Part shown: positions 1,977 to 32,300 of the stretch, piece by piece
Position numbering within the stretch: the stretch's first letter is position 1
Layout: every line of letters begins with the position of its first letter
Origin: an uncultured Thermoplasmata archaeon
GTDB taxonomy: Archaea > Thermoplasmatota > Thermoplasmata > Halarchaeoplasmatales > Halarchaeoplasmataceae
DNA length: 64,000 nt
Direction: 5' to 3'
Assembly (NCBI GenBank): GCA_964602715.1
Contig: CAZRSB010000003.1
Span: 5,783 to 69,782, forward strand
Notes under the pieces: generated by a model
The model's database searches: none
Told to the model about the DNA's origin: nothing
What the model saw: only the letters and a program-made list of their open reading frames with translations
Program-made: the position numbers and the translations under genes

Positions 1977-3074
1977 ATGCCAGAATATAAAAATCAACAT
2001 TATGTTCCACAGTATTATCTAAAGTTTTTTAATGACGGGAATAATAAGATTTGTGTTTATAATTTTGATAAAATGGATGAATTTATGGTACCAGTCTCTA
2101 ATGTATGTTCCAATACTTACTTTTATGGTGAAGGGAACATCGAAGAAAGTTTGAATGATTTTGAAACTCAATGCTCAGAATTGATTGAAAAAATAATTGA
2201 GAATGGTAATTTGAATAATATTAGCAATGAAGAGTACACTTTATTATTACAATTTATCCTATTCCAAAGAAGAAGAACAAAAAAGGCTAAAAACGAGATC
2301 GATGAAATTGTACAACACTTTTTCAGAGAGATTACAAAATATGGGGTTGAAAGCGGAGAATTAGACGAAAAAGCCTATGATTTAGCACAGAAAGGAAAAA
2401 TTAGACTAGAACATCCTATGTTTCAATACAGTCTATTATATGGTCCACTTTTTTACAGATTAATAGCCGATCTTGAACCTCTATTAATTCAAAATGAAAC
2501 AAAGAAGGACTTCGTTATAGGAGAACATCCCATAATATTTGATAACCCTTTATTTAAACATACGCAAATTCATGGTGGGATAGGACCGCTAAATAAAGGG
2601 TTGGTTATAATATGTCCATTAAGTACTGAATTTGCGATATTATTGTATGATCCTAAATCTTATAAGTTTGAGTTTGAAAATAGGTTGAAAATCAAAATTA
2701 AAGATCCTTTAGTGATTAAATCACTTAATATTTGTCAATATATCTATAGTGATTCAAATCTGTTCTATGGTCAATGTGGAAGAAAATATGAGATGAGAAC
2801 TATTCAAAAATATTTTAGAGAAGATAAACAAGAAGAAATGTCTAAACACATAGAATATACTCAATCGAATACTAAAAAATCGTTTTTACAATCAACTTCA
2901 AACCCTAGCGATTCTACACCTTATCTACCGTTCCTAAAAGAAAAAAACGGCGTCGAGTTTAAGTTAGAAAGAATAGAAGGTTTAAGTGAGGAAATCCATA
3001 AAGAAGTTTTAACGTATCTTGAAGATTTTTCTGAGTTATCAGAAGACGAGATTAAAAATCTATTCTTCACTTAA
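1977..3074 (+). CDS. DUF4238-family protein (candidate single-gene antiphage protein, Rst_DUF4238-like)
   Basis: N-terminus MPEYKNQHYVPQYYLKFF matches the HYVPQ(F/Y)YL(R/K)xF signature that opens DUF4238 (PF14022). Gene is very AT-rich relative to core genes. Confidence 0.6.
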   Translation: MPEYKNQHYVPQYYLKFFNDGNNKICVYNFDKMDEFMVPVSNVCSNTYFYGEGNIEESLNDFETQCSELIEKIIENGNLNNISNEEYTLLLQFILFQRRRTKKAKNEIDEIVQHFFREITKYGVESGELDEKAYDLAQKGKIRLEHPMFQYSLLYGPLFYRLIADLEPLLIQNETKKDFVIGEHPIIFDNPLFKHTQIHGGIGPLNKGLVIICPLSTEFAILLYDPKSYKFEFENRLKIKIKDPLVIKSLNICQYIYSDSNLFYGQCGRKYEMRTIQKYFREDKQEEMSKHIEYTQSNTKKSFLQSTSNPSDSTPYLPFLKEKNGVEFKLERIEGLSEEIHKEVLTYLEDFSELSEDEIKNLFFT

Positions 3075-8195: not shown

Positions 8196-8489
8196 TCATC
8201 CTTTCCAGAAGCAATCATCACAAAAAACGCACCTCTTTCCTTCTAAATCTATTTTATATCGCTCTTTACACTCTTCAAAACCTTCTTGTCGCCCCTCTTC
8301 ACGGGCTTCTTCTATCTCTTTTTTGAGATCTAGACTATCTTTGATGATCTCCTCCAGCCAATCTTTTTTGCTCATATCTACTTCCTGGAGGAGTTCCTCC
8401 AATTCCTCTTTCAGTTCTCGATCAACTCGGAAATTAATAATCGGATTTTGCTTCTCATATTTCTCCCTGGAAGGCGCTTTATCAGCCAT
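8196..8489 (-). CDS. ribbon-helix-helix (CopG-like) domain protein with C-terminal Cys cluster
   Basis: PIINFRVDRELKEELEELLQEVDMSKKDWLEEIIKDSL resembles the RHH strand-helix-helix. C-terminus has CVFCDDC. Confidence 0.5.
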   Translation of the reverse strand: MADKAPSREKYEKQNPIINFRVDRELKEELEELLQEVDMSKKDWLEEIIKDSLDLKKEIEEAREEGRQEGFEECKERYKIDLEGKRCVFCDDCFWKG

Positions 8490-8532
8490 TATAATTATAA
8501 CATCACCTGCTCTATATAGTTTTTTTGTTTTC

Positions 8533-8606
8533 TACATAGTTTACTATATGGTTTTCCATACAGTTTTCCATATGGTTTGCTGTATGGTTTTCCATATCGT
8601 TTGCTA
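8533..8606. repeat. about 6 degenerate tandem copies of a 12-bp unit (TATGGTTTTCCA / TACAGTTTTCCA / TATGGTTTGCTG / TATCGTTTGCTA)
   Basis: Read directly in sequence. Lies 45-120 bp upstream of the RHH gene start (8489). The 8323..8697 ORF across it is a repeat artefact. Confidence 0.6.
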
Positions 8607-9003
8607 TGTGCAAAGGGAGATTTTCTCTTATACTCGATCATCTCCTATAAATTCTCTGGATAGCGATTTTAGTCAAGGCGTAGTAGGGGTACACTAAAAG
8701 GTGCACTATTCCTCGGAAACCGCCGCATGCGGTATATTATACCCCTTCATTTCACCCCTGCCGGCCCCAGGGGGGATGAGGGGTCCCCAAGGGACGAGAG
8801 GAAAAGATGGAAGGAGGGAGCAGGGAAGACAGAAGAAAAGCCGGAGAGGAAAGAAGTAGGAGTAAGAAGAGAGGGGCGAGGGACCGGCGGAAGAGGATGA
8901 GATAGCAGGCGGAGATGAGAAAAAAGTATAGGTAGAAATTAAGAAAGTTTATATTTTAGACGAGCACTCTTTATATGTCAGACAGACTGGAGGCATTAAA
9001 AAT

Positions 9004-9678
9004 ATGCGAGAAAGCACGATGAAAAGATCATCTGTGAGGGAAGAATTTGATATGGTGTTCGAAGAAGAAAATCTAGAAAAAGCAAGAGAAAGTCTTCAGA
9101 GGAAGATAGACGAGCTCGAAGACAAAAAGAAATTGGGAGATGCTCACTACCTTCTAGGATACATTTGCCAACGAGATGAGGACTATGATAAAGCCTACGA
9201 GCATTTGAGAGAAGCGGAGAAGTTGAGAAGAACAGTCGATGATAAAGAAGGGCTGGTAGAGACTCTCTCCTTCCTAGGAACTGTTGAAAAAGAAAAAGGG
9301 AATGAAGAGAAAGGGTTAGAAAATTTAGCTGAAGCGGCAGGTCTAGAAAGGGAACTAGAAAACTTCGAAAGTGCAGGAACATTCTACGCTATGCTCGCTA
9401 ATGGACATGATGAATTGGGTAGAACTGATGAGGTCCTTCACTATCAGAACAAAGCGATAGAGATGATGGAAGAGTTAGATAAAAAGGGCGAAAGCACCTT
9501 GAATGTAGAGGCTATGATTTTCACCAAAAAAGGTGGAGAAGAACTTCGAGACATCCATGGAAAGCGTATAGAGGCGTTTAAAGAGGAATATGAAGGTGAA
9601 TCAGAGGTGTTAACAACGTTTGAAGCCTTCGACGAGATGGAAAACTCCTTGTCAGAGTTGAGGGAAGAACTAGACTGA
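9004..9678 (+). CDS. hypothetical protein with TPR-like helical repeats
   Basis: 224 aa. GGAGG RBS 9 nt upstream. Segments such as AHYLLGYICQRDEDYDKAYEHLREAEKL are TPR-like. Confidence 0.5.
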   Translation: MRESTMKRSSVREEFDMVFEEENLEKARESLQRKIDELEDKKKLGDAHYLLGYICQRDEDYDKAYEHLREAEKLRRTVDDKEGLVETLSFLGTVEKEKGNEEKGLENLAEAAGLERELENFESAGTFYAMLANGHDELGRTDEVLHYQNKAIEMMEELDKKGESTLNVEAMIFTKKGGEELRDIHGKRIEAFKEEYEGESEVLTTFEAFDEMENSLSELREELD

Positions 9679-9802
9679 TCTGCAACGTCTTAAAACCTTT
9701 TGAATCTTTAACCCACTAGGGCAATATAGAGGACCCTAGGGATACGACAAGTTAGAGAAAAAATAAGATTTTGAAATATATACTTTAGCCTGATTCATAA
9801 TT

Positions 9803-12058
9803 TCAACCGTAATCTTCAAAATTTCTACTTATATAGGGGGCCTGCTCTTTGGGCTTCAAAGGTTCAGTCCTATTTCCTCTTCTAACAAAGAATTTTCCCT
9901 TTCCTTCTCTTTCTATAAACGAGGGGGTATCTGCATGTTCAACTTCTATTAAGCACACTTCCTTACCATTTACGGTAAAGAAAGAAACCTCAATATAATC
10001 ATTGAATTTTTCTTCCATATAGGAAGAAACTAGATTGAGTAGATGCCGTTGGAAAGCTTCTCTTTTTTCTTCCTCTTTGAACGTATCATAATCTTCTTCT
10101 AGACCGTAAACTTCTCCATCATTTTTAACGCCGATTAATAAAGTCCCTCCTTCTTCTGAGTTCAAAAATCCATTTATAGCTTTCATCGATTGATATTCCA
10201 CATCTTTTGTTCTCATACCTCTATCTTTTATATCCGTACGAAGGGTGGATTTAAACTCTAAATTTTGACCTTCACCTTCTTCGATCAACAGTTGGACATT
10301 TGTATCTTGTGCCCTTGAATCGATAACATTGAAAGTTATCCCATCCAGCTCTTCTTTGAGAAGTTCTTCGAATATCTTTATCCTCTTCTCGATAAATTCA
10401 TCGAGATATTTATGGCCCAATTCATCATCCCGGCACCAGTCAAGTATGGCCTTGGGGATTAGATGGGTTTCTAACACCTCTTCAAATCCTTCTCCATCAT
10501 AATCTTTAAGATAGTCAATTGGATTCTTGTCACTGATCTCTAGATTTGTAATCTGGGGAATATAAGCTATGTTCATAAGGCTGTCTTCGTCCAATTCATT
10601 GTCACCAGGATAATCCTCTACAAATCCACGTGGAAAGATATGATGTAGGTTTGGCTTATCTATTAAATGATAATATACTTCACTTATCACTGATCTATCG
10701 TAGTGTTTCCAGTCTTTTGGATCCTGGTTCGATAAGAGGGACAAAATAGCTCTAGAAAATCTCCCTCTATAACTGTATGATGATTCTCTCAGATCATTCC
10801 TATCCAGAATGAAAGGTTCAAATTCAAATTCTTCTCCCTGTTTGGCTTTCTCTAACTCTTCTAAATGATCATATCGAAGATGTCTTGTGTGCTTCAGTTT
10901 CTCTTCATTGTGGAACGAATAATACCAGAAGTACTTTTTTAGTAAATCATAATCAGGATCATCGTTTTCGTAGAAATAAGATGAGATAGTTATGTAGAAA
11001 TATCTGTATGGGATAAGATTTGGACCTTTCAAATGAAGATGGTTTTCAAAGAAGTCAAAAGTATCCCTAAAGGCTTCTTTCGCTCCATCCCATACCTCTT
11101 CTATTTGTTTTGCTGTGATATTATTTAGATAGGTGTCAGTGATATTGTGGACACTTGCATCTTCTATGTTCTGTCTAATTATCATCGCTAACATCTGAAG
11201 GTATGTTTGATACCCTATTCCGGAAAACTCACCTGGTGTATTGTCTTTGAAATCATCTATCATCTCTCTCAGATAGAAACCGCCCTCTGGATGCCCTTCT
11301 TGCCTAAACGTTTTAGCTACCACTATGTCAAATATGTTGAGAGGTTCACCTTCCTGATTTACTCTCTCAAATATTTCACAGACCTCATTGGTCTCTATTC
11401 CCTTCAATTCAATAAATGGGATCCTGTAGTTATCCATCACATGCTTTATCTTCCTCAAATTTTCCCTGTAAGGATGTTCGTAAGAAGTATACCCTAGATT
11501 ATGTATATTCCTTTCAATCTCATTATAGTTCTCCTTTATATCTTTCAGTTTTACGATCAGTCCCTTTTTGTATCTTTTCATCTTTGGGATGTTCTGCTTA
11601 ATCTCTCCGCCTTTGTCGTCTATCTCACCCCAACATAAGAAGCGTTTTTTATACTTTGAATCTTCCTCGTCTTCTTCCTCCTCCACCGTGAGGTCAACGT
11701 ACATAGTGGGCTCAAAGTCTCTTCTCCACTCCCCTTTAGCCCCATATAGGGAGGTTAGCAGGGCTGTTGTCCTTTGCTGCCCATCCAATATATATTTGAA
11801 GTCTGATTCTCTCTCAGAATCGTCGATCTCGTGTCCCCCGATCTTCCTATGTTTCTGCAGTTTTACATCTGTCTTCCAGACCAATATGCTCCCAATCGGG
11901 TAAAATTTATAGATACTGTCCCACAACTTTTTCACATTGTTCTTTTCCCAAATAATTTCCCTCTGGAAAGTGGGAATCTGATATTTTTTGTTCTTCAAAT
12001 TTTCAAGATATGTCCCTATAGAATCATGAGTGGGTTTGATTCTATCTGCATCTTCCAT
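9803..12058 (-). CDS. GmrSD-like type IV restriction-type nuclease (DUF262 + DUF1524) fused to a C-terminal AlbA_2/Schlafen-like domain
   Basis: N-terminal DUF262 motifs (QREIIW, ILDGQQRTTAL). Central His-Me-finger/DUF1524-like HHIFPRGF...NIAYIPQITNLEISDKNP. C-terminal EFKSTL...AINGFLNSEEGGTLLIGVKNDGEVYGLEED resembles the AlbA_2 (PF04326) core. Confidence 0.65.
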   Translation of the reverse strand: MEDADRIKPTHDSIGTYLENLKNKKYQIPTFQREIIWEKNNVKKLWDSIYKFYPIGSILVWKTDVKLQKHRKIGGHEIDDSERESDFKYILDGQQRTTALLTSLYGAKGEWRRDFEPTMYVDLTVEEEEDEEDSKYKKRFLCWGEIDDKGGEIKQNIPKMKRYKKGLIVKLKDIKENYNEIERNIHNLGYTSYEHPYRENLRKIKHVMDNYRIPFIELKGIETNEVCEIFERVNQEGEPLNIFDIVVAKTFRQEGHPEGGFYLREMIDDFKDNTPGEFSGIGYQTYLQMLAMIIRQNIEDASVHNITDTYLNNITAKQIEEVWDGAKEAFRDTFDFFENHLHLKGPNLIPYRYFYITISSYFYENDDPDYDLLKKYFWYYSFHNEEKLKHTRHLRYDHLEELEKAKQGEEFEFEPFILDRNDLRESSYSYRGRFSRAILSLLSNQDPKDWKHYDRSVISEVYYHLIDKPNLHHIFPRGFVEDYPGDNELDEDSLMNIAYIPQITNLEISDKNPIDYLKDYDGEGFEEVLETHLIPKAILDWCRDDELGHKYLDEFIEKRIKIFEELLKEELDGITFNVIDSRAQDTNVQLLIEEGEGQNLEFKSTLRTDIKDRGMRTKDVEYQSMKAINGFLNSEEGGTLLIGVKNDGEVYGLEEDYDTFKEEEKREAFQRHLLNLVSSYMEEKFNDYIEVSFFTVNGKEVCLIEVEHADTPSFIEREGKGKFFVRRGNRTEPLKPKEQAPYISRNFEDYG

Positions 12059-12490
12059 GGTATAATCACCTATTTTTGTAAAGCTAAACGATTAACAACA
12101 TAGAATATTTAAAATTAATCGCCGTAATTAATTTGATAAAAGTGTAGAAAACTACTCATTAAAGTTTCATCATCTATTCCGTTATTCTCACTTGCTACTT
12201 TTCTTCAGGCAGGAAACTTCATAAAATCTGTGTGATTTAAGAAGAAGCTAGAAATATGAATCATTCTAATATATACTTATATGAGTGTATATTCCTCACA
12301 CTCTACCGGATTTATGAAGGTGATCTTCACTTCTTTATATAGTATCACTTAAGTTTAACAGATGAAACTCGAAAATCGACGGAGAAACAGGAATTTTTAA
12401 CGATTTATCCTGATTGATTTTATTTTTTTCAAGAGGAAGAAAGAGTATTGAGGAAGAAAAGGTATGAACGGACAAAATCCCTAACGCACG

Positions 12491-12523
12491 CACGCATGCG
12501 CATTACGTAACATGTCCGGACAT
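12491..12523. repeat. three adjacent perfect palindromes (CGCATGCG, TTACGTAA, ATGTCCGGACAT)
   Basis: Read directly. Lies in the 515-bp intergenic gap between the GmrSD-like gene and the Rep-like gene. Confidence 0.55.
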
Positions 12524-12573
12524 ATCACATATAATAATACTATACGCGATCTGTCCGAAGTCCTATCTAGAGA

Positions 12574-15500
12574 TCAGTATCTACTTTCTATACCGTCTGG
12601 TGGGCGTGGTCCTTCCAACGGACTCTGATAGGGGCTTTCCCCTTCCAACTCTGTATCTCCTCCTGGGTTTATCCCGTTCAGGCCTTGATTGATCCATTTA
12701 TAGGCCACTCCTTCCTTTTTTTTGACAAGTGTATCAGTTTTCTCCTCTAGTTCATTCAGGCATCGTCGCACCTGTCTCTTTGACAAGTCGATCTTCTTTG
12801 CAATCGTCTTAGTGGTAAACTCTTCTCTTTTTTTCGCCTCTGAAAAGACTTTCTTCATCCCATCACTCCAAATATTTATGACCCCTGGTTGTGTCTCGTG
12901 AGGGACCCAATCAGGTAAAGTGTTCGTTTCGACATACACAACCGCTCCTTGTCCGTCTCTCCCGAAGCGCATTACTGCTTGAAGAGTGGCATTATGAGTC
13001 ATATGCCGATAGATTTTATTCCCAAAATCCCCATAGTCAGTATCCTCCCCTCTCCCTTCTCTTTCTACTCCCTCGTTTTGGTAGGCCCCCCATTTTTTGA
13101 TGTAATCGTCTCCGCAGTGATTCGATCCGATAACCACACCCAATCGCTTTTTTTTAAGCTTATTTGATCCTTTCAGATTACCGTAGTGAGTGTGATCATC
13201 GACGAATGTGAGCAATCCTTCTTCTTGGTATTGGTCCTTTGCTTTTTTCGTGGTGATCATAGAGGGCCTCTGATCATATAGTTCCGTTAGCTTTTGAAGA
13301 AGGAGCCGATCCGACTCGATGTTGACGTAATTCCCTGAGGAGTAGGGTTTCATGTGCTCAGTCGTGCGGATAAAATGATGATTCAATCCTTCCTTGAGGT
13401 ATTTCTTTCTTTCACTGTCATCCAATACCTGACGATGTTCTAATCTTGCACCACCAAGAGAAATTTCCCACATCTCTTTAATGGGAGTTCCATCTAATGC
13501 AATGATTTGCCTGCAGTAGTACAGATTCGGGGGTTTCATGACGTGAATTCTGTTAGTCGCTCGGTTATGAAGAACGGTGAGATGCTTATTTTTATCAAAA
13601 TAGCGCTTACGCTCGTATCCGTTGACCGTATTATCTTCATCTCCCACCATTTCAAGGAGGGCATGAATCACTGTAGGGGTAAGTGAATGTGTTTCTTCTG
13701 AGTCAAGGACCCATGTTGGGGTTTTCTCCTTCATTCCATCGAGATATTCGAGTGCTTTTTCCCGCCTTTTTTCATCATCCCTGTTTTCCAAAAGATCGGT
13801 AATGTTTTGGAAAGGGATCCTATCTTCGTCCTGAAGGTAATCCGATATGGCTTTTTTTAATTTTTCCGCTGAAAATTTTTCCTCAAAGGCATCCTCGGGA
13901 AATTCATCGAATACTACTGTTCTCTTTTTCGTAACTTTGGGAAGATGAGCACATAGATAATGCCCTATCAGAACATCGTAATATTCCGGATCGAAGTTCC
14001 AAGCCATGCTGTACGGACATGCCCCATCCTTTTGACACGGAGGAGAGCAGTATTTATGGATCTGTTGTGGGGTAAGCCCTCGTTCATACCAATCTTTTAC
14101 CTTATCTTTCCACTCTTCACCGTGTTCCCCTGTTGCTGTTGGACAACTCTGAAAAAAAGAAGGTAGCCGTTTATATGAGAGGTTCTCATCCTCGCACCAC
14201 TCTTCTATCTGTTTATACTGCTCTTTATGTCCCCGATCGGTAAGAACCGTTAGGGGTGTGTGTGTTTCTTTAGCGGCTTTGATTATACCGTTGCTCTTCC
14301 CTAACGAGGGTAGTGCATCGATGAGGATGTTTTCTTGGCTTTCTAACGCATCTACAAGGCAGTCTAACGTTTTTTTCCGTGCTTTTTCCACATGCCTTCT
14401 CCGTGGTCTGTCATCTATGAGGATGGGTTCAACAGGTAAATCACTTACATCATCAGGCTTGTTCACTGAAACTAATAGATCTGGTTTTGGAGATCCTTTT
14501 TCGAGGATGGGAATATCATATCCTCCCTCACTAAGTCCCTCTACGGCTTTCCAGAATGTCCTCCCGTCGAGTTTTTCAGCAGGAGTTGATATGAGCCCCA
14601 CTCCCAGCGCATACGCCTTGAGAGGACCACCGCCCTTATCTACTTTGTTATCTATGAACCGATTTTCTCCTTCAGGGATTGCACAAGATTTTCCGCTTTC
14701 ACTCTCCCGCCAAGAGGGGTTGAAGGTGATTTCGGATGATCTGTTCGAGGTGTCAAACTCGTCGGAAGCGTACTTTTTGACGATCTCTTTTACATCGATC
14801 CTATTAACAGCATCTACTACATCACACCAGTTATCGGTAGTTTCTAAATCAGCCAGGTTAATGTTCTTTTTACGACGCTCTTCCCGTCTCTCTTTCCGAT
14901 CTTCGGTAATTTTTTTTCGCCGTTTTTCTTTTTCCTTCTCCTCTTCAACCCAAGTCTTAAGGGCAACTTTCCAGTCCCCTTCGTAGAAATCTGGAAAGAG
15001 ATCTGAAATCATTTTGTCGAGTGGTCTATGGTTTTCGGGAACTGTGGTAAAATCTACACACCATTCTTTGACCTTTGAAATCAATTCGCTGTCTACGTCT
15101 TCCTTGCGAATCAACTTGTACTCCACGGTGGCAGTATCTATTGGATGGACCACGCCATCTATTTCTTTGTGTAAAGAGAGAGGGCCTTTATATTGCCGAT
15201 TCTTATTGTTAATCGCATCCATTTTACAGATTTCTTCTGCTCCATCAACGCTTTCAAGAACTTCAATCCTCTTTTTTTTAATCCAGTCATTCATGCGGTC
15301 CGTCAATTCATCGAATATTTTTCCCTTGCTGTTCAAATCGCTAATAGGTGCAGTGACGCCTGGAGCAGTGAATATGTAAACTCCTCCAACAGAATCCAAT
15401 AGAAAGACGTGATCCTCTCCTACCAACCTCTCGAATTCTTTTATCATCTTCTCTATCACTTTTGAGAATATTTTTTTCTTCTCAGAAGGAAGGGAGCGCT

Positions 15501-15903
15501 CTTTATGGGCATCCTTTAGGTCAATATCAACGAATAAAGCAGTGGCATAGATTTCATCATAATTAGGCAGAGGTGATTCCCCTCCCTCAAAATATGTGCC
15601 CCCATCGGTACTTTTGCATAATTTCTCTTTCAGAACATCTTTTTTCTGGTAGTTGAGCACGGCGTAATAGTGTCTGTCGATCTGATCTGCAAGTTCTCCA
15701 GCATCACCTCCCAAACTGTAAGGGCGGCCCCGATACTGATATCCTTCTTCGTAGCTTTCGATTTTCTTAGCCGGTCTTTTGTGGTACCACCCATAGTGAT
15801 CACTGATGCCAAAAGTAGTAGTCTCTTCCATCCCTCCTAGAGCTTTGAAAATCGGGATCAATTTTTGGTAATACTTCCTGTGCTCACTCCTTTTCCGTGT
15901 CAT
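12574..15903 (-). CDS. replication initiator-like protein: AEP primase-polymerase-like N-domain, P-loop NTPase, C-terminal wHTH
   Basis: AEP motif I-like ALFVDIDLKD and motif II-like DSVGGVYIF. Walker A-like LPSLGKSNG and Walker B VVFDEFPE. C-terminal helix-turn-helix KTIAKKIDLSKRQVRRCLNELEEK. 1109 aa. Confidence 0.55.
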   Translation of the reverse strand: MTRKRSEHRKYYQKLIPIFKALGGMEETTTFGISDHYGWYHKRPAKKIESYEEGYQYRGRPYSLGGDAGELADQIDRHYYAVLNYQKKDVLKEKLCKSTDGGTYFEGGESPLPNYDEIYATALFVDIDLKDAHKERSLPSEKKKIFSKVIEKMIKEFERLVGEDHVFLLDSVGGVYIFTAPGVTAPISDLNSKGKIFDELTDRMNDWIKKKRIEVLESVDGAEEICKMDAINNKNRQYKGPLSLHKEIDGVVHPIDTATVEYKLIRKEDVDSELISKVKEWCVDFTTVPENHRPLDKMISDLFPDFYEGDWKVALKTWVEEEKEKEKRRKKITEDRKERREERRKKNINLADLETTDNWCDVVDAVNRIDVKEIVKKYASDEFDTSNRSSEITFNPSWRESESGKSCAIPEGENRFIDNKVDKGGGPLKAYALGVGLISTPAEKLDGRTFWKAVEGLSEGGYDIPILEKGSPKPDLLVSVNKPDDVSDLPVEPILIDDRPRRRHVEKARKKTLDCLVDALESQENILIDALPSLGKSNGIIKAAKETHTPLTVLTDRGHKEQYKQIEEWCEDENLSYKRLPSFFQSCPTATGEHGEEWKDKVKDWYERGLTPQQIHKYCSPPCQKDGACPYSMAWNFDPEYYDVLIGHYLCAHLPKVTKKRTVVFDEFPEDAFEEKFSAEKLKKAISDYLQDEDRIPFQNITDLLENRDDEKRREKALEYLDGMKEKTPTWVLDSEETHSLTPTVIHALLEMVGDEDNTVNGYERKRYFDKNKHLTVLHNRATNRIHVMKPPNLYYCRQIIALDGTPIKEMWEISLGGARLEHRQVLDDSERKKYLKEGLNHHFIRTTEHMKPYSSGNYVNIESDRLLLQKLTELYDQRPSMITTKKAKDQYQEEGLLTFVDDHTHYGNLKGSNKLKKKRLGVVIGSNHCGDDYIKKWGAYQNEGVEREGRGEDTDYGDFGNKIYRHMTHNATLQAVMRFGRDGQGAVVYVETNTLPDWVPHETQPGVINIWSDGMKKVFSEAKKREEFTTKTIAKKIDLSKRQVRRCLNELEEKTDTLVKKKEGVAYKWINQGLNGINPGGDTELEGESPYQSPLEGPRPPDGIESRY

Positions 15904-16246
15904 TTTCAGGTTGTTCGATACTGATCCTTTCTCTCGCCAGGAGGCAGTCCTGGACGTGCCTACATCTCTTACAATCCCCAGTAATCCGATCTGATATGTT
16001 TCTAGTCCTCAATATTTCCAACTCTCTTTCCATCTCTTTGATAGCGTGGACCGCCAACCTTGCCTGATCGAAGGTGAATCCTAGCCCTTCTAGCATATCG
16101 ATCAGGATCTTGAAATCAAGAAGTTCAGATGGTCTGGGATGCTGACATTTATCAGGGAGGGGAAGTTTCTGGACGGCTTCCTTTCCAGCCTGTTCTATCT
16201 TTTCTTCCTCTTCAGATGTTAAGGCGTAGTAATTCTTCTCTGTCAT
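15884..16246 (-). CDS. hypothetical protein (element-borne), overlaps Rep start by 20 nt
   Basis: 120-aa ORF co-directional with and operonic to the Rep gene. Contains CKRCRHVQDC. Confidence 0.5.
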   Translation of the reverse strand: MTEKNYYALTSEEEEKIEQAGKEAVQKLPLPDKCQHPRPSELLDFKILIDMLEGLGFTFDQARLAVHAIKEMERELEILRTRNISDRITGDCKRCRHVQDCLLARERISIEQPENDTEKE

Positions 16247-16248
16247 AT

Positions 16249-16431
16249 TTACTCATCTCCACTGTTGGCACTTTCTTTCTTCTTTTCTTCCTCTATATCT
16301 TCTCCAGCCTGCTTTAGAATCGCTAGTGCCATCGCCCGAACTACAGTATCTCCGTGTTTAGCCAGTCGATGGAGTTTGTCTTTGTTCTTTCTGACGTATT
16401 GTTCAACATCATTCATCCTCATCACCATCAT
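16249..16431 (-). CDS. hypothetical small protein
   Basis: 60-aa ORF immediately upstream of 15884..16246 on the same strand. Confidence 0.35.
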   Translation of the reverse strand: MMVMRMNDVEQYVRKNKDKLHRLAKHGDTVVRAMALAILKQAGEDIEEEKKKESANSGDE

Positions 16432-16573
16432 TCATTTCCTTTTTACTTAAGAGAAGAAATATTCCTTCTCTCACATAACTACTCAGAGAATTACCTGTCT
16501 TTTGAGCCCGTTTTTCCAACTTTTCATAGGTAGAAGGTTTCAATCTGACAACGATCCGCCTTTTCTTAGACAT
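16409..16573 (-). CDS. ribbon-helix-helix (CopG/Arc-like) protein, 54 aa, not in ORF track
   Basis: Manual translation MSKKRRIVVRLKPSTYEKLEKRAQKTGNSLSSYVREGIFLLLSKKEMNDGDEDE. Basic beta-strand RIVVRL followed by two helices. Overlaps 16249..16431 by 23 nt. Confidence 0.5.
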   Translation of the reverse strand: MSKKRRIVVRLKPSTYEKLEKRAQKTGNSLSSYVREGIFLLLSKKEMNDGDEDE

Positions 16574-16681
16574 CGTATCGGTACACCTTTATAGTCACAT
16601 TCATCGTAATCTTTTTCACAGATGGCCGATTTTCAAGATTTGAAAATAGGTGCTTAAAGTGAAATTCGAGGTTTTCAAAAG

Positions 16682-17749
16682 ATGAAAAAAGAAGAAAATG
16701 AAGAGAAAATTTTAGACGTTTTAAGTTTCGGAAAAAACCCAACCACGCGTTCTTGGGAAATTTTGATGATAATATCTAATCAAGAAAAGATCGGATATAG
16801 TCTCGATACATTAATGGATAAACTTGAGAAATCCGGTAAGGATTACTCTAAGCAAAATGTGAGGAGAGACATAAAAAAGAGACTTAAAAAAGGTGATTTA
16901 ATTGAGGTAAAAAAGGAGAAGAAACCACAATATGGAACACCTCACAATAGGTACAAAGTCACATCTAGGGGGAAAATAGTTGCAGAGAAATTAAAAGAAA
17001 TCAAAGAGATATTGACCAATTTTGAAAAATATGAGGTAGAAAAAGATCATGAAAAATGGATCGAAAAATGGGTGGAAGAATTTACCAGCATGATAGATAA
17101 AAATGAATCGGTTGAAGATTCCGAATTAATTTCTAAATTGAAGGACTTAAGGACCTATATTAGGGATAATGACGCCTATATTGAAGTTTTTGAAAATAAA
17201 AGATTGTTAGATATTTTATGGGATTATATGGAAATCAAATCCCCTGCATACGAAGCAACATACACATTTAGGGATAAAAAACAGTATGTAGACTATCAGC
17301 TTTCTGCGTTCGTTATATATCTAGATATTCTTAAAGAAGGATTTGATCTAAACTTACCTTCTTTCCCAAAACAGGAAATGAATCGGATATGGGAAATTAT
17401 ATTTCACTTCTATATCAATTCTGAAAATTATTCTTACATAACCGATACTAAGACTAAAAAGAAAATTAAAAAGAGAGTGAACAATATTGTATCCACAATA
17501 TTTACAGATTATTATGGGGATGGAAGATCAATTGAGGAAAAATACCTTTTAGAACTTCTCGACGTTTTGTTTGATTCCTCCGGTAATATAGAAGATTCAA
17601 ATCTTCGAGATATTCTTGTTAATAAAATAAAAAACAGAAAGGATATGGAGTTCCTAAAGGAGCAGATCGAAGAGGAAATAAAAGAACAAGATGATTCAGA
17701 GTGGTTAAGAGAAATTCTAAGAGATGGGGGATACATCGAACTCATATGA
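16682..17749 (+). CDS. hypothetical protein with N-terminal winged-helix-like segment
   Basis: 355 aa, divergently transcribed from the RHH gene. N-terminus ILDVLSFGKNPTTRSWEILMIISNQEKIGYSLDTLMDKL is wHTH-like. Confidence 0.5.
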   Translation: MKKEENEEKILDVLSFGKNPTTRSWEILMIISNQEKIGYSLDTLMDKLEKSGKDYSKQNVRRDIKKRLKKGDLIEVKKEKKPQYGTPHNRYKVTSRGKIVAEKLKEIKEILTNFEKYEVEKDHEKWIEKWVEEFTSMIDKNESVEDSELISKLKDLRTYIRDNDAYIEVFENKRLLDILWDYMEIKSPAYEATYTFRDKKQYVDYQLSAFVIYLDILKEGFDLNLPSFPKQEMNRIWEIIFHFYINSENYSYITDTKTKKKIKKRVNNIVSTIFTDYYGDGRSIEEKYLLELLDVLFDSSGNIEDSNLRDILVNKIKNRKDMEFLKEQIEEEIKEQDDSEWLREILRDGGYIELI

Positions 17750-17761
17750 TATTGGTGTATT

Positions 17762-18997
17762 CTAATCAACTCTATCTTTCAATACTTTCTTGAACTCTTC
17801 CATTATCTCTTCGTTTTCGTTCATCAACTTTACCATGTCCATGAAATCCTGCATATCATCTAACACTTCTGGCTTTTCTTTTGCAAGTTGGGTAAAATCT
17901 TTGCTTACATCTTCTTTATCCTCTTCTATCTCTTGAGCGGCTTCCACACTTAGCGCTTGTCCACATCGCTGACAAAATTTAGCCTCGGGGGAGTTCTTTT
18001 CTTCACATCTAGGACAGTCTATAGGTGATAATTCGGCGTTGTCATCCTCTTCTTCCTCCTTTATCCCATGAATCTTGTCATATGCGTCATCTATATCTCT
18101 TCCGCTGAGATGCACATATTTAGAAGGTTGATCACTACCTTGGACCCATCCAAACCATTCACACATCATCGCCTCTGTGAATCTGGGGGCTAAAAATGTT
18201 GCTCTACTGTGTCGAAAATGATGTGGATTTACAGGCTTATTGATTTCTGCCTTTTCCGCTGTAGTGTTTAATGCCTTGAGTAAAGTTCTATATTCGGCTT
18301 TCTTTCCGTTATTTTTTGTACCAATATTGACCCATAACGGAGCACTATCCTCATCCCTTTTTGGATGTGAATTTAACCACTCTCTCACATCTGGAATACT
18401 GCTTACTAACGGGAGCCTTCTCGGGCCTGTCTTTCCGTTTATCACAATTTTCAGTCCGTGTTCACGATCCTCAAAATCCCCAATGGTCAGATCAATAATC
18501 TCACCGATTCTAGCGCCTGTTTCCCAGAGAAGGCTGATTAAACACCGATCTCTCGGGTTGCTAGCGTGATTTATCAACTTACTCACATCATCTTCAGTCA
18601 GCATTTTTTTCGGTAACTTACCGTTATTCTTTTTCTCTGTAGTATTGATCCAATCTACTTTATCTGGATATACCCCATCATTCAACCACTTATAGACTAC
18701 TTTTAGAACTATCTTATACTGTCTTTTAGTGGCATCAGCAATATCTCTAGAGTTTACCCAGGCTACAATCTCTTCTATTTGTTCTCTTTCAGCGCCTTTC
18801 AAGTCAAAATCGACATGTTCTAAGATTTTTTTCAAATGTGAGAGAAGTTTTTGTAAGTGAGCATCTGAATAGTCCTGTAGCATAAGATGCCTATGATATT
18901 CTTCTAAGAGTCCTTTGTTTCCTTCAGTTACTTCGTCATTCTCTTTTACCTTTTCGAGGATTTGCTCATGCCGCCCCTCATAGTCTAGGAGAGTCAT
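17762..18997 (-). CDS. int: tyrosine recombinase/integrase with C-terminal zinc ribbon
   Basis: SAM-like N-domain. Catalytic residues in TGARIGEI, HHFRHSRAT and the downstream Y region. C-terminal CPRCEEKNSPEAKFCQRCG. Confidence 0.8.
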   Translation of the reverse strand: MTLLDYEGRHEQILEKVKENDEVTEGNKGLLEEYHRHLMLQDYSDAHLQKLLSHLKKILEHVDFDLKGAEREQIEEIVAWVNSRDIADATKRQYKIVLKVVYKWLNDGVYPDKVDWINTTEKKNNGKLPKKMLTEDDVSKLINHASNPRDRCLISLLWETGARIGEIIDLTIGDFEDREHGLKIVINGKTGPRRLPLVSSIPDVREWLNSHPKRDEDSAPLWVNIGTKNNGKKAEYRTLLKALNTTAEKAEINKPVNPHHFRHSRATFLAPRFTEAMMCEWFGWVQGSDQPSKYVHLSGRDIDDAYDKIHGIKEEEEDDNAELSPIDCPRCEEKNSPEAKFCQRCGQALSVEAAQEIEEDKEDVSKDFTQLAKEKPEVLDDMQDFMDMVKLMNENEEIMEEFKKVLKDRVD

Positions 18998-19049
18998 ACT
19001 AATAACAATATACCTATTCTATAAAAGTGTTTTGAACTGTAAAGTAAAT

Positions 19050-19175
19050 GGACGCTGGGTCCACTAACAAATCTATGATTTTTAGTGGGCATAGAGAATG
19101 CTCTAACATTCTCTTGGGTCCACTAATCTCTGATTAGTGGTAAATCAGAATCTTTGATTCTGACGGGTCCATTAT
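19050..19175. repeat. cluster of direct and inverted repeats (GGGTCCACTAA x2, GGGTCCA x1, TTAGTGG x2, palindromes AGAATG-N6-CATTCT and TCAGAATC-N3-GATTCTGA): candidate att/ori
   Basis: Read directly. Starts 53 bp from the integrase start codon. Confidence 0.5.
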
Positions 19176-19548: not shown

Positions 19549-20061
19549 ATGAAAGAAAAATCAAGATTGGGAAAGGAAAAAAAATCTAAACCTAAAAGAG
19601 GAAAAGATAGAAAAGATAAGGCGGATCATATGAAGAAGAAAGCTAAATATGACAAAAAAATTGCAAAACAGGAAAAGAAAATAGGCAAATATGAGGGTAA
19701 AATAGAAAAATATCGAAATAAAATAGAAGATTTCAAAGATAAAATAAATAAAGCAAAGGCAAAACAAAGAGAAGCACAGCAGCTTTCAGGGAGAGCACAC
19801 AAGAAAACCCAATCGAAAAAAGAGAGAGGTGACAGGGAAAATAAGGCTAAACATATGAAAGAGAAGGCAAAATATGATAAGACTATCGCAAAGCAGGAAA
19901 AGAAAATCGGTAAATATGAAGAGAAAATAAGTAAGTATAAAAATAAGATTAAAAAATATAAAAAGAAAAAGAAAGATGCTTTGGGAAAAAAGAAGGAACT
20001 GAAAAAAAAATCTAATGAAGAAAAGAAATCTATAAGAAAAGACTCTAATAAAGAAAAGTAA
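19549..20061 (+). CDS. Lys-rich protein with a ~75-aa internal duplication
   Basis: Repeats of HMKKKAKYDKKIAKQEKKIGKYEGKIEKYRNKI. GGTGG RBS. Confidence 0.5.
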   Translation: MKEKSRLGKEKKSKPKRGKDRKDKADHMKKKAKYDKKIAKQEKKIGKYEGKIEKYRNKIEDFKDKINKAKAKQREAQQLSGRAHKKTQSKKERGDRENKAKHMKEKAKYDKTIAKQEKKIGKYEEKISKYKNKIKKYKKKKKDALGKKKELKKKSNEEKKSIRKDSNKEK

Positions 20062-22449: not shown

Positions 22450-22525
22450 TGGTGCGGGTTCGGGGATTTGAACCCCGGTTATAGCCTTGGCAAGGCTAGG
22501 TGATACCAAACTACACCAAACCCGC
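22450..22525 (-). tRNA. tRNA-Gly(GCC): tRNA-Gly (anticodon GCC), CCA encoded
   Basis: Reverse complement folds as GCGGGTT/AACCCGC acceptor, anticodon loop TTGCCAA, T-arm CGGGG-TTCAAAT-CCCCG. 76 nt. Confidence 0.85.
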
Positions 22526-29325: not shown

Positions 29326-32300
29326 TCAAAAATCTAGAGAAAGTCGTTTTTTCTTTTTTTTCTCCTTTTCCGCTTTCTTTTCCTCTTTCTCTTCTTGAAA
29401 TTCATACACTACTAAATTAGTTCCGCAATCCGGACACTCCTCTTCTTCCTGAGAACAAGAGACATCATAGAGTTTACCACAGCTACAGTAAATTAGTTTT
29501 TCACCTTCATCGATCATCTCCCCACAAACTTCACATTTTTCCTTTTCCTCGGCAACTCTTAACTCTGAGCCTAGACTCACATCTAAAATTTCTTCGTCTT
29601 CAAAATTTTTATCGTCAAATATTCTAAGACCGCTAGCTACGATAGAGGCTCCCTCGTTCGAAGGTTTGATTTCACATGTGATCACGTGTTCTTCTCCAGC
29701 TTTTAGCTTTTCTTTGTTTGATATATCTCTAATCTCGCCCCCTATGAGTTCTATTTTGATATCTTTAGCGAGAGCTTGACCCTGGTTTATTAGTGAAATA
29801 TCCGCTTCATCCCATTTATCTACAGTAAATTTTCCAGAAACGTGCACTTCAATATCTGGGCTGTAATCAGAAAGCACATCCTCAATCTCTTGATGAGCTT
29901 CTTTTATTTTTTCAAAGGCTTCTATTTTGTCTTTCTCCTTTTTTATTGCCTCGGCCTCCTCTAATTTTTCTACAGCTGATTTGACGGAAGCTCCGAATTT
30001 TTTAGCATTTTTTATGGATTCCTTAACTTGGTTTAGAATCTCATCATACTCTTTCTGCTTCTTCAGACCTGAAATATTTTTAGCCTCTTCAATATATTTC
30101 GAAGCTTCTATAGGGTTATCAAACTCCATGAAAAATCTAGCTTTCTTCAGTATCTCTAACGCATTATCGACATCCTTTTCTCCTTTTTTTCTGACGTCTC
30201 CTTCTAGATTCTCAATGACGTCCCTGATCACGTCTTTATTTTCTGCTAAAATTTTATCAATATCTTCTAGAATCCTTTTAGCTTTTTTATATTGGCCATT
30301 TCTGTGATATTGGATGACTTCATTTTTCCTTTCTTCAAACTCAGATATATCTATTTCTCGATTTTCAAACTCTTCCATCAGGGTGTCAATATTATCTATA
30401 AAAAGTTTGATGTCTTCATACGCTTTCAATAGATTACTTAATTCTTCCCAAGCTTTCCAGGAATTTTCAATCACCTTAGTGTAGAAACCACTCTCATATG
30501 ATTGATTTGCTTGTTTCAGTATTTTTTTTGGTTGTTCAATTAGGATACCTTGATCCTGGAGCCTTTCTAACTCCTCTTTAGTTTTCGTAAGGCTTATGTT
30601 GGCTAATTTCTTCTGCATGCCCATCCTTTCTAGCTCACCCTCTGTTTGCATCGCGAACTTTACACCTTCGAGAAATCTCCTTTCATTTTTAGCTTTAACA
30701 GCTTTTTGAATCTTATTTTCAGCAAGAGCGGTATAAACGCCTTTATCACTTAGATCTTTTATTCTTTTTTTAGAATTGTTTATGATCTGTTCTAATCTAT
30801 CCTGCTGAGCTTTCTTACTGTCATCTAAAATTTTTTCAGCCTTTTCAAAAGCTTCATGATACCTAGCTTTTTCTATGTCTTCTTCAGCTTTTTCACTTAA
30901 CTTCCTTTCCTTACTTACATCCGCACCCATTATAGCAGCCTTCATCAAAGTGGTCTTGGCCTCAGCTAACACTTTTCTAGCTGATTTACCTTCTTCTTTA
31001 ATTTCATCAAGATCTTCTTTCAGGCCTTTTAACTTTTCTAGAGAATCCGTAATCCTTTTTTGGTTCAGCAAAGATCTTGTCCGTTTAATCTTATCTTTTT
31101 TCTCATCAACTTGAAAGCCCATCTCTTTCGCACAATCGCAGATGTCTTTAATCTTTTCTAATTCCTCATCTAAAGATTTTTCCAATATATCATTCAATTC
31201 GGTCTGTTTCTCTTTTATAATCTCCTTCACATCCGATTTTTCCCTGTCACTAACGGACTCTTTGATCTCTTGAAATTCTTCCTCGAATTCTTTAACCTCT
31301 TTATCAGAGAGCTCATAATTTTCTATTTTTTCTAATTTTTCTTCGATATTATGTGTTACCTCTTCAAAAAGATTATCAAATTCAAAGTTAGTGAGGATTT
31401 CATCAGCTTCCTGGGTTTTTTGTATGCTGTTCTCGTAATTCCTTGCTTCAAATTCTTTTTTTGCCTCTAACAATATGTTCTTTGCTGAATTGAGTTCATC
31501 ACCATCTTTTTTCTTTCTAAGATCTTTTAATTTAGATGCCGCGGCTGAAAGCATATCATAAGCTTCTTTTCTTTTATCTTTCAACTTAACCAGCTCCTTT
31601 TTCAATTTCTTTGCCGAAATTATACTATCGACAAAATTTTTTCTTTCTGTTTCTTCCTCTAAGTTTTTTAAATTTTCTTCATAAGCATCGGTTTCGACCC
31701 CCTCCTTCTTCGCCTCTTCTATCTCCTCTCTCGTTGTAGTCAGGGTTTTCTCAGCTATCAGAGATAGCGAGTTATTTAGGCTATCAAAAGCTTCTTCTAT
31801 TAAGGGCAAAGCTTCTGTTTCTTCGTCATCTTTCATGAAATCCTTAGCTTTTTCTATTTTTTCCTTTTGAGTGTCTATGTCTTCTACTTCTATCTCTTCT
31901 TTTTCAACTAGCTCTATTTTATCAAGAACCTCATCAATCTTGCTTTCTGCGGCACCCATCTTGACTCTTTTTACTTTTTTTCTTAAATGTTCTAGATTCT
32001 TTATAGAATCATCATATCTACTTTCTTCGATGCTTTTTTCACCTTTTGATACGATATCACTGAGCTCCTCCTTTGTCTCCTTTTCGATGTCTTCTATCTC
32101 GATTTGTTTTTCCCTAATTTCATCGTACTCCTGCTTTAATTTGCTTTCGATTTTTTCTGAAATTATCTCTATTCCTTTTTGAGCTATCTCAGCACTTTCT
32201 AAGTGATCAGAAGCTTCATATTTTTCACGGCTTCTTTTTATCTGATCAGAAAGTGATTCTAAATCGATATCTAATTTTTTTGCGCTTTTAGATAGATCTT

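Follow-up and report, generated by a model that had tools for sequence, protein, structure and literature searches.

Small mobile elements of archaea and bacteria have primase-helicase fusions as their standard replicases. The helicase partners known in such replicases come from superfamily 3 (SF3; D5 and pRN1), SF4/RepA, MCM, DUF3987 and the UL9-like group of superfamily 2 (SF2); XPD/DinG-like SF2 helicases are known from repair, transcription and type IV CRISPR systems. The current work concerns rep, a gene in a 64,000-nucleotide stretch of contig CAZRSB010000003.1 (assembly GCA_964602715.1) from an uncultured Thermoplasmata archaeon, hereafter the window. Its product joins an archaeo-eukaryotic primase (AEP) domain, an XPD/DinG-like helicase and a winged helix-turn-helix (wHTH) in one chain. 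With odds of about three in four, it is the replication initiator and primosome (Rep) of an integrative plasmid-like element of about 9.5 kb in an archaeal chromosome.

Reps of the AEP-helicase-wHTH type on small integrative elements are well known from pRN1 ORF904, PrimQH, All3500 and arCOG07809. In descriptions of ORF904 and of the primase-polymerases (prim-pols) of mobile genetic elements, a prim-pol, a helicase and a wHTH are combined, and CopG precedes ORF904 (PMC4158269, PMC11724360). Like ORF904 of Sulfolobus, the rep product has an N-terminal AEP, a central NTP-driven helicase and a C-terminal wHTH in that order, and its gene also stands behind a small ribbon-helix-helix (RHH) gene on a small plasmid or integrative element. 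Unlike ORF904, its AEP belongs to another family, structurally nearest to PriS and the polymerase domain of LigD (LigD-Pol) and without a Pfam Prim-Pol match; its helicase is of the SF2 XPD/DinG type, not SF3; and it has an extra domain resembling the DnaG-type zinc-binding domain (ZBD) but devoid of zinc ligands.

The PrimPol-PV1 supergroup (PrimQH, PrimHYQ, All3500), in the sections of Kazlauskas et al. 2018 that deal with it (PMC5862659), resembles rep in the relaxation of the motif II His to Tyr or Gln and in being carried by mobile elements with integrases. In the same sections, PrimQH has the comparable architecture "AEP + PriCT/Zn-binding domain + P-loop ATPase + WH", and All3500 shows AEPs fused to remote SF2 helicases; the UL9-like SF2 group that partners the All3500 primase is not the closest relation of the rep helicase. 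PrimHYQ is described there as uniformly AEP, PriCT-1 and HTH without a helicase, unlike rep with its ZBD-like domain and SF2 motor. The arCOG07809 (Mpal_2033) elements of methanogens (Makarova et al. 2014) are likewise small and integrase-bearing, with a main gene combining primase, helicase, HTH and zinc finger, and homologs without the primase domain and stand-alone helicase versions exist there too; the helicase, set against that of rep by description only, is described as superfamily I / DnaA-like. With T7 gp4 and DnaG-DnaB, rep shares the presence of a primase domain, a DnaG-type ZBD fold and presumably a 5'->3' helicase in one chain, and sister proteins with the same C-terminal module carry a genuine DnaG/Toprim primase core. 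The rep primase, however, is an AEP and not Toprim, its ZBD lacks zinc ligands and follows the catalytic domain instead of preceding it, and its helicase is a two-RecA SF2 motor, not a hexameric SF4 ring.

The rep gene and its primase half

The rep gene is complete and lies on the minus strand at 12574..15903, as do all features of its product given below. It runs from an ATG through 1109 residues to a stop, in agreement with the list of open reading frames (ORFs), the homologs and the structural models. This single frame had been described in an earlier, sequence-only reading of the window, and all strings quoted there are present in the translation: ALFVDIDL at aa 122-129, DSVGGVY at aa 170-176, LPSLGKSNG at aa 531-539 and VVFDEFPE at aa 663-670. 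An open frame of 3.3 kb in DNA of 37-44% GC is not a chance ORF. The order of domains is AEP primase, charged helix, zinc-less ZBD-like domain, XPD/DinG-like SF2 helicase, wHTH and disordered tail.

When 1.84 billion representatives were searched exhaustively, 839 homologs were recovered, and 452 of these had E <= 1e-30. A copy 97% identical to rep was found in a soda-lake metagenome-assembled genome (MAG) labelled Thermoplasmata (L003, PWHR01000015.1), and a 56% full-length homolog (P0002) in another metagenome. Residues 6-24, which include an invariant Tyr12, align across all relatives and are conserved as coding sequence in L003; thus the first ATG is the true start, and the public gene call P0001 (1085 aa, from Met25) is too short because conserved residues precede Met25. 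Rep and its 97% copy differ by 15 synonymous and 19 non-synonymous codons, which are clustered and too few for an informative ratio of non-synonymous to synonymous substitution (dN/dS). The amino-acid differences gather at aa 3-31 and 142-175, a distribution that suggests mosaic recombination. In the L003 copy, the reading frame continues past the position of the query's stop up to the contig end. As a single protein, rep gave only sub-threshold HTH matches (aa ~1020-1067) in Pfam, PHROGs, NCBIfam and PDB sequences, so that no curated family model covers either enzymatic half.

The N-terminal half contains an AEP catalytic domain (aa 1-305; 14989..15903), recognized from its predicted structure and motifs. 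Comparison of the predicted model with known structures returned the AEP fold, the point on which the sequence-only reading had made its proposal depend. Structural-neighbour figures were 16.0 for the LigD polymerase domain of P. aeruginosa, 15.5 for that of M. tuberculosis and 15.5 for Prim-PolC, the top neighbours being polymerases of non-homologous end joining (NHEJ; 2fao, 2iru, 5dmu). These were followed by human PriS (14.7), yeast PriS (14.5), P. horikoshii PriS (12.3), S. solfataricus PriS (11.9) and CAPP (10.7). Neither the query nor any of 27 relatives matched the Pfam Prim-Pol model (PF09250) at E <= 1, and the N-module profile found nothing relevant among PDB sequences and Pfam. When the N-module was compared by hhalign with nine other N-terminal families found on the same helicase, PF09250 among them, the probability stayed below 1%.

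Motif I (ALFVDIDL; 15517..15540) is as clear as had been claimed: LFVDID is present, and D126 and D128, which are predicted to bind metal, vary in none of the 32 N-module relatives. D229 of motif III, at the end of model strand 226-229, is followed by the nucleotide-binding stretch N235-R236..K239..L242..H245, which contains a PriS-like K-x5-H (15169..15219). Conservation over the same relatives is 100% for S171, G174, D229, R236, K239 and H245; the motifs of rep are kept by selection.

Motif II (DSVGGVY; 15376..15396) reads S171-x-G-G-x-Y176 and departs from the canonical sxH. It forms a beta-turn-beta hairpin in the model, with strands 166-170 and 174-179 and the Tyr at the start of the second strand. 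Judged from the motif pattern and this hairpin, Tyr176 probably occupies the canonical His position; the residue is Tyr in 31 of the 32 relatives, Phe in one and His in none. The replacement of His by Tyr had been presented as unusual. The substitution itself stands, but it is less exceptional than supposed, since a relaxed motif II, Tyr included, has been published. In its treatment of motif II, Kazlauskas et al. 2018 report His/Tyr/Gln variation among AEPs, with Gln in the active PolpTN2 and Tyr in PrimHYQ members (PMC5862659). In a BT4734-like primase-polymerase, the residue mutated as motif II is a Lys (K243), and the enzyme is active (PMC11724360). Published AEP families thus deviate at this position with Gln, Tyr, Lys or Arg, as far as these accounts of motif II extend, and the missing His is therefore compatible with membership of the AEP superfamily.

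K239 and H245 are 6 residues apart, as are positions 231 and 237 of PolpTN2. Such a K-H pair makes up the second and third positions of the "HKH" combination, which is typical of PriS according to the passages of the same survey on catalytic motifs (PMC5862659). Because of Tyr176 and of a K239/H245 spacing equal to that of the HKH pair, the AEP family of rep is termed "Y-K-H". It occurs in elements of halophilic archaea; beyond those, one weak match to a Methanosarcinales virus was found (E 2e-7, 25% identity).

The adaptor, the helicase and the wHTH

A long Lys/Glu/Arg-rich helix (aa 311-345; 14869..14973) joins the AEP domain to the domain that follows in the model, where pLDDT values (the model's local confidence score) are 61-72 in its second half (blocks 331-360). 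Behind it, a structure match revealed a DnaG-type ZBD fold without zinc ligands (aa ~355-470; 14494..14841), a fourth domain that had been overlooked, so that the domain list of the sequence-only reading was incomplete. The domain has a zinc-ribbon fold, and its conserved residues include P396-S-W398, S401, G404, F416-x-D418 and G426. No conserved Cys or His was found at the positions corresponding to the CHC2 zinc ligands in 150 copies of the domain.

The P-loop domain (aa ~500-1010; 12874..14406) is an SF2 helicase core of the XPD/DinG/Rad3 type, with two RecA-like motor domains, motifs I, II, III and VI, and two insertions in the first RecA-like domain. Walker A and Walker B were correctly recognized from the letters. 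Walker A or motif I (ALPSLGKS; 14293..14316) has G535 and K536 invariant in alignments of 45 and 43 sequences. It is followed by a predicted metal-binding insertion (14017..14145) with four invariant residues, C587, H616, C623 and C629, in the pattern C-x28-H-x6-C-x5-C ending in CPY; C619 of the query is not conserved. An Fe-S cluster and Zn are the candidates for the metal at this site. Walker B or motif II (VVFDEFPE; 13894..13917), with invariant D666 and E667, comes after the invariant R661. An Arch-like insertion of ~135 aa, modelled as helices and three strands, separates Walker B (aa 666) from the motif III-like LDGTP (aa 803-807; 13483..13497), in which L803, D804 and G805 are invariant and the T and P nearly so. 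The motif VI-like QAVMRFGR (12958..12981) supplies a candidate arginine finger; its Q975, R979 and R982 are present in nearly all family members and invariant in the alignments.

This order of parts is that of XPD: motif I, Cys/His insertion, motif II, an insertion of ~135 aa, a (D)GT-P motif III, and a second RecA domain ending in Q..R..R. The Cys/His insertion between motifs I and II takes the place of the 4Fe-4S domain of XPD, with one ligand a His. The structural-neighbour figures of the C-terminal half agree, with S. tokodaii XPD at 19.3, F. magna DinG at 19.2, XPD 3crv at 19.1, type IV-A CRISPR DinG at 18.1 and yeast Rad3 at 17.6. In the search of the family profile against the PDB, XPD 2vl7 was the sole helicase match (E 1.3e-3), with an alignment that spans motif I (ALPxxGKS vs AKPGLGKT) and reaches into the first Cys. 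The domain nevertheless differs from XPD, Rad3 and DinG in several respects. Identity is only 10-14%, DEF stands in place of DEAH and Cys-His-Cys-Cys in place of four Cys, the Arch-like insertion is small, and the helicase shares its chain with a primase and a wHTH and is carried by plasmids, outside the pathways of repair and transcription.

The comparison with D5/ORF904-type SF3 ATPases suggested earlier is not upheld by this identification of the P-loop domain. An SF3 identity was also rejected because D5_N, DUF5906 and Pox_D5 are absent from the query and were seen only in relatives that share the N-module. UL9-like SF2 helicases were likewise discarded as the closest relation, origin-binding proteins of the UL9 type having been found only at E ~1e-3 and TM 0.2 (Foldseek, viral models). 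Against these viral models, the C-module gave moderate and mostly unnamed matches, the best named one being B494 of the fusellovirus SSV-K1.

The wHTH (aa ~1014-1072; 12688..12864) had been proposed as a terminal DNA-binding domain, and both the model and the profile matches support this. Its topology of helices (H) and strands (E, or S in the summary H-S-H-H-S-S) is H520-530, E534-536, H537-543, H548-562, E565-570 and E573-578 in C-module numbering. The profile matched the wHTH of TFE in the PDB (E 2.2e-4) and many MarR, ArsR and MecI entries. Family members match Pfam MarR with E down to 5.5e-7, the query alone remaining sub-threshold. Public records label members "hypothetical protein" or "MarR family transcriptional regulator", the latter because of these Pfam MarR matches.

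Modular fusions, plasmids and the function of rep

Few homologs match rep over its full length (P0002, P0010, P0029, P0118). Some match aa ~1-470 only, and many match aa ~505-1087 only, sometimes from aa ~350. The N-module occurs elsewhere in fusion with D5-type SF3 helicase domains (PF19263, PF08706, PF03288), as in P0003, P0005 and the "DNA primase family protein" of pHTUR06, and also on other C-termini or nearly alone. The C-module stands alone as a protein of ~600 aa in 82 of 255 sequences. Single-linkage clustering merged the N-termini joined to the C-module into one cluster through the shared ZBD-like domain, and was redone with coverage limits. About 31 sequences combine the C-module with Prim-Pol PF09250, 98 with an unannotated N-terminal family and 9 with the N-module of the query; a cluster of 15 N-termini includes all four sequences that match the DnaG-type primase core PF08275+PF13155. 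Since the C-module is joined to at least three unrelated types of primase, the partnership of primase and XPD/DinG-like helicase has been assembled repeatedly. The proteins with the helicase-wHTH module make up a large haloarchaeal family that lacks annotation; it has hundreds of representatives at 50% identity, and no curated protein-family library contains it.

Complete circular plasmids of haloarchaea bear most directly on function. A family member is the sole large gene on each of four plasmids of 8.9-23.7 kb: Halorientalis litorea unnamed4 (8.9 kb, 1062 aa), Halomarina sp. BCD28 unnamed5 (10.8 kb, 1246 aa), H. turkmenica pHTUR06 (15.8 kb, N-module with D5 helicase) and phalar02 of halophilic archaeon DL31 (23.7 kb, 1312 aa). 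Each of the three smaller plasmids has a site-specific integrase, and phalar02 has a resolvase-domain protein. Apart from small ORFs, only a few mid-sized genes remain, in pHTUR06 and phalar02, and no other annotated replication gene was found on the four plasmids. pHTUR06 is listed without orc/cdc6 (PMC3528665). Haloarchaeal initiators of the RepH or Orc type gave no match in any search.

The presence of family members on complete plasmids and the RHH-rep operon layout are the grounds for regarding rep as a Rep. The proposal of a divergent replication initiator in the sequence-only reading is to this extent favoured, whereas the DPANN-type elements in which it was placed find no support. The nearest copy is in the Thermoplasmata-labelled MAG, and the other relatives all come from genomes or plasmids of Halobacteria.

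A Rep of this composition could act as follows. The C-terminal wHTH would recognize the origin of the element, and the XPD/DinG-like motor, whose Walker A GKS, Walker B DE and motif VI Q..R..R are intact, would open and unwind the DNA with ATP. By resemblance to XPD and DinG, the helicase would probably be monomeric and travel 5'->3' along the template of the lagging strand, and the Cys-His-Cys-Cys insertion may serve as a strand-separating wedge, as in XPD, whichever metal it holds. The AEP domain, whose fold and conserved residues are apparent, would synthesize primers on the exposed strand and may extend them. Tyr176 would assume the nucleotide contact of the motif II His, together with the invariant R236, K239 and H245, and the zinc-less DnaG-ZBD-like domain may help to hold the template. 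After priming, the host replisome would take over. Copy number is probably controlled by the small RHH protein whose gene heads the operon, in the manner of CopG in pRN1, and the integrase of the element would mediate integration and excision.

Several points weigh against regarding rep as the Rep of an integrated element. The AEP assignment rests on predicted structure and motifs because profile-profile comparison showed no sequence similarity, and with the motif II His missing, it is not assured that the domain acts as a primase. DEF replaces DEAH in Walker B, and the metal site is CHCC instead of four Cys. A search for flanking direct repeats of the att type yielded only a 10-nt repeat (9512 and 19073) and no convincing pair around the element, and no origin was identified in the element. 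In addition, the structures that match the two halves best, LigD-Pol and XPD/DinG, belong to enzymes of repair and not of replication. It is from this last point that a role in DNA repair or damage tolerance might be argued, with the AEP filling gaps, joining ends or performing translesion synthesis and the helicase acting on damaged DNA or R-loops. The top structural neighbours, NHEJ polymerases (2fao, 2iru, 5dmu) and the helicases XPD, Rad3 and DinG, would suit such an enzyme, and primase-polymerases of mobile elements can have repair activities (PMC11724360). Such a role is nonetheless improbable. A family member is the sole candidate replication gene on plasmids of 8.9-23.7 kb, including pHTUR06 without orc/cdc6; no ligase or Ku partner was found near rep in the window or in an identical metagenome contig (L001); fusion to a wHTH of the sequence-specific type and the RHH-rep layout are typical of plasmid Reps; and the modules are exchanged with bona fide primases (Toprim, Prim-Pol) and replicative SF3 helicases.

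Of 255 C-module proteins, 82 are without any primase domain, which would agree with an AEP rendered catalytically dead by the His-to-Tyr change in a protein that serves as an origin-binding helicase or loader and recruits the host primase. Many AEPs cannot do without the canonical motif II His, as stated in the motif survey of PMC5862659, and it is found at this position in 0 of 32 members. However, the three metal-binding Asp residues, S171, G174, R236, K239 and H245 are conserved in all of these members and the Tyr in 31, and this retention of both the catalytic positions and the Tyr itself points to an active site and not to a decaying one. AEPs without the His have been published as well, among them the active PolpTN2 (Gln) and BT4734-like (Lys) enzymes and the PrimHYQ members with Tyr (PMC11724360 and the relevant part of PMC5862659), and a dead AEP is unlikely. 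Still less credit is due to a part for rep in defence or anti-defence together with the neighbouring GmrSD/Schlafen nuclease, akin to CRISPR-associated DinG or Prim-Pol. Rep does adjoin a GmrSD_N+AlbA_2 gene, and its structural matches include type IV-A CRISPR DinG, CasDinG and CAPP; yet this gene is no constant neighbour of rep: the genes downstream of the 97% copy and of the 56% homolog are unrelated, the small plasmids have other cargo, and no CRISPR array or cas genes were seen near rep.

The element, its chromosomal setting and the wider family

The element attributed to the Rep protein extends provisionally over 9564..19082, a segment 100% identical to an independent 9519-bp metagenome contig (Logan contig L001) whose genes are precisely those for the integrase, RHH protein, Rep and GmrSD. 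This contig has no terminal overlap, and a circular form was not demonstrated. An integrase and a replication module thus lie together in the window, and related circular plasmids carry an integrase and a rep homolog, as in an integrated mobile genetic element. The order is integrase, RHH gene, two small ORFs, rep and defence cargo gene. The tyrosine integrase (17762..18997, minus; 411 aa; PF00589, E 1.4e-18) has a C-terminal zinc ribbon. A 355-aa ORF with a weak PadR-like match lies at 16682..17749 on the plus strand. The rep operon begins on the minus strand with a 54-aa CopG-like RHH gene (16409..16573; weak RHH_3/NikA-like matches in the identical Logan contig), followed by a 60-aa ORF (16249..16431) and a 120-aa ORF (15884..16246). 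The latter overlaps the rep start by 20 nt, shows 73% amino-acid identity to an L003 ORF and has no Pfam match. Downstream of rep, a 751-aa gene (9803..12058, minus) combines GmrSD_N (PF03235, E 1.4e-31) with a C-terminal Schlafen/AlbA_2 domain (PF04326, E 4.2e-16) and probably encodes a defence nuclease carried as cargo of the element. It is not conserved beside rep in two other loci, L002 and L003.

The GC content of the rep region is 0.40-0.44, above that of the flanks. Positions 3239-6921 of L003 share only rep and the 120-aa ORF with the window (12587..16260), and because the flanks of this copy are unrelated, the replication module itself moves between contexts. A tRNA-Gly gene (22450-22525) was rejected as the integration target: it is 3.4 kb outside the element, with ABC-transporter genes between, and no repeat was found. 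Just upstream of the integrase gene, at 19056-19175, two exact copies of TGGGTCCACTAA occur 59 nt apart, each paired with an inverted TTAGTGG and followed by a degenerate third copy. The resulting palindrome, CCACTAA-N7-TTAGTGG (for example 19120-19140), is not enriched elsewhere in the window, and the Logan contig end at 19082 falls inside the first palindrome of the TGGGTCCACTAA cluster. The cluster is a candidate recombinase core or att site, or an operator. Between these palindromes and the ABC-transporter operon, an ORF at 19549-20061 (plus) consists of A-rich tandem repeats of 21 nt (7 aa), with weak coiled-coil-type Pfam matches only.

On the other side, 6.8 tandem copies of a 12-nt unit, GTTTTCYATATG, occupy 8527-8607, directly upstream of a small RHH-like minus-strand ORF at ~8200-8490 (MADKAPSREKYEKQNPIINFRVDRELKEEL...). 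The GTTTTCYATATG array looks like an operator or iteron array; lying ~1 kb outside the provisional element, it may be a part of it, for example the origin, or of a neighbouring element. Between this array and a tetratricopeptide repeat (TPR) gene, a stretch at 8730-8920 is strongly purine- and G-rich (GGGGGGATGAGGGGTCCCC...GGAGGGAGCAGGGAAGACAGAAG...).

The window as a whole is archaeal chromosome, since it contains an archaeal signal recognition particle (SRP) RNA and archaeal housekeeping genes; its genes include those for RpoB, aIF5B, ABCE1, the archaeosine tRNA-guanine transglycosylase (TGT), Pus10 and SMC. RNA polymerase subunit B is encoded by one unsplit gene of 1207 aa (58686-62309, plus). 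Halobacteria and many methanogens have a split B'/B'' subunit. The unsplit RpoB argues that the host is not a haloarchaeon, although the relatives of the element mostly are haloarchaeal. Two large minus-strand ORFs lie at 29326-33738 (1470 aa, no Pfam match at E <= 1e-5) and 51705-57440 (1911 aa). A DUF4238 gene is present at 1977-3074 (plus), and a Natronorubrum bangense plasmid has another (L013 2009-2917), 3 kb away from a stand-alone C-module gene; this co-occurrence with the C-module is possibly a coincidence.

Three features appear to be undescribed in the literature searched and in curated libraries: a PriS/LigD-like AEP family with a Y-K-H signature, the pairing of plasmid primases with an XPD/DinG-like SF2 helicase that has a CHCC site, and a zinc-less DnaG-ZBD-like adaptor common to these fusions. 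A broader and tentative proposal, against which the odds still lean, is that haloarchaeal plasmids use an unrecognized class of replicative helicase. Its members would be monomeric XPD/DinG-like SF2 motors with a Cys-His-Cys-Cys (Fe-S/Zn) wedge and a built-in origin-binding wHTH, plugged interchangeably onto at least three unrelated primases ("Y-K-H" AEP, Prim-Pol and DnaG/Toprim).

If 5'->3' translocation holds true, such a protein would be a gp4-like lagging-strand primosome made from repair-type parts. If the proposed role of Tyr176 is likewise true, the AEP family would bind its nucleotide through Tyr instead of His, and the choice between NTP and dNTP may change. The AEP half offers a well-conserved natural His-to-Tyr variant in a PriS/LigD-like scaffold, useful for the study of nucleotide binding by AEPs, and rep with its origin is a compact candidate replicon for genetic tools. 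Once recognized, the family can also serve to locate integrative plasmids in genomes of haloarchaea and related organisms.

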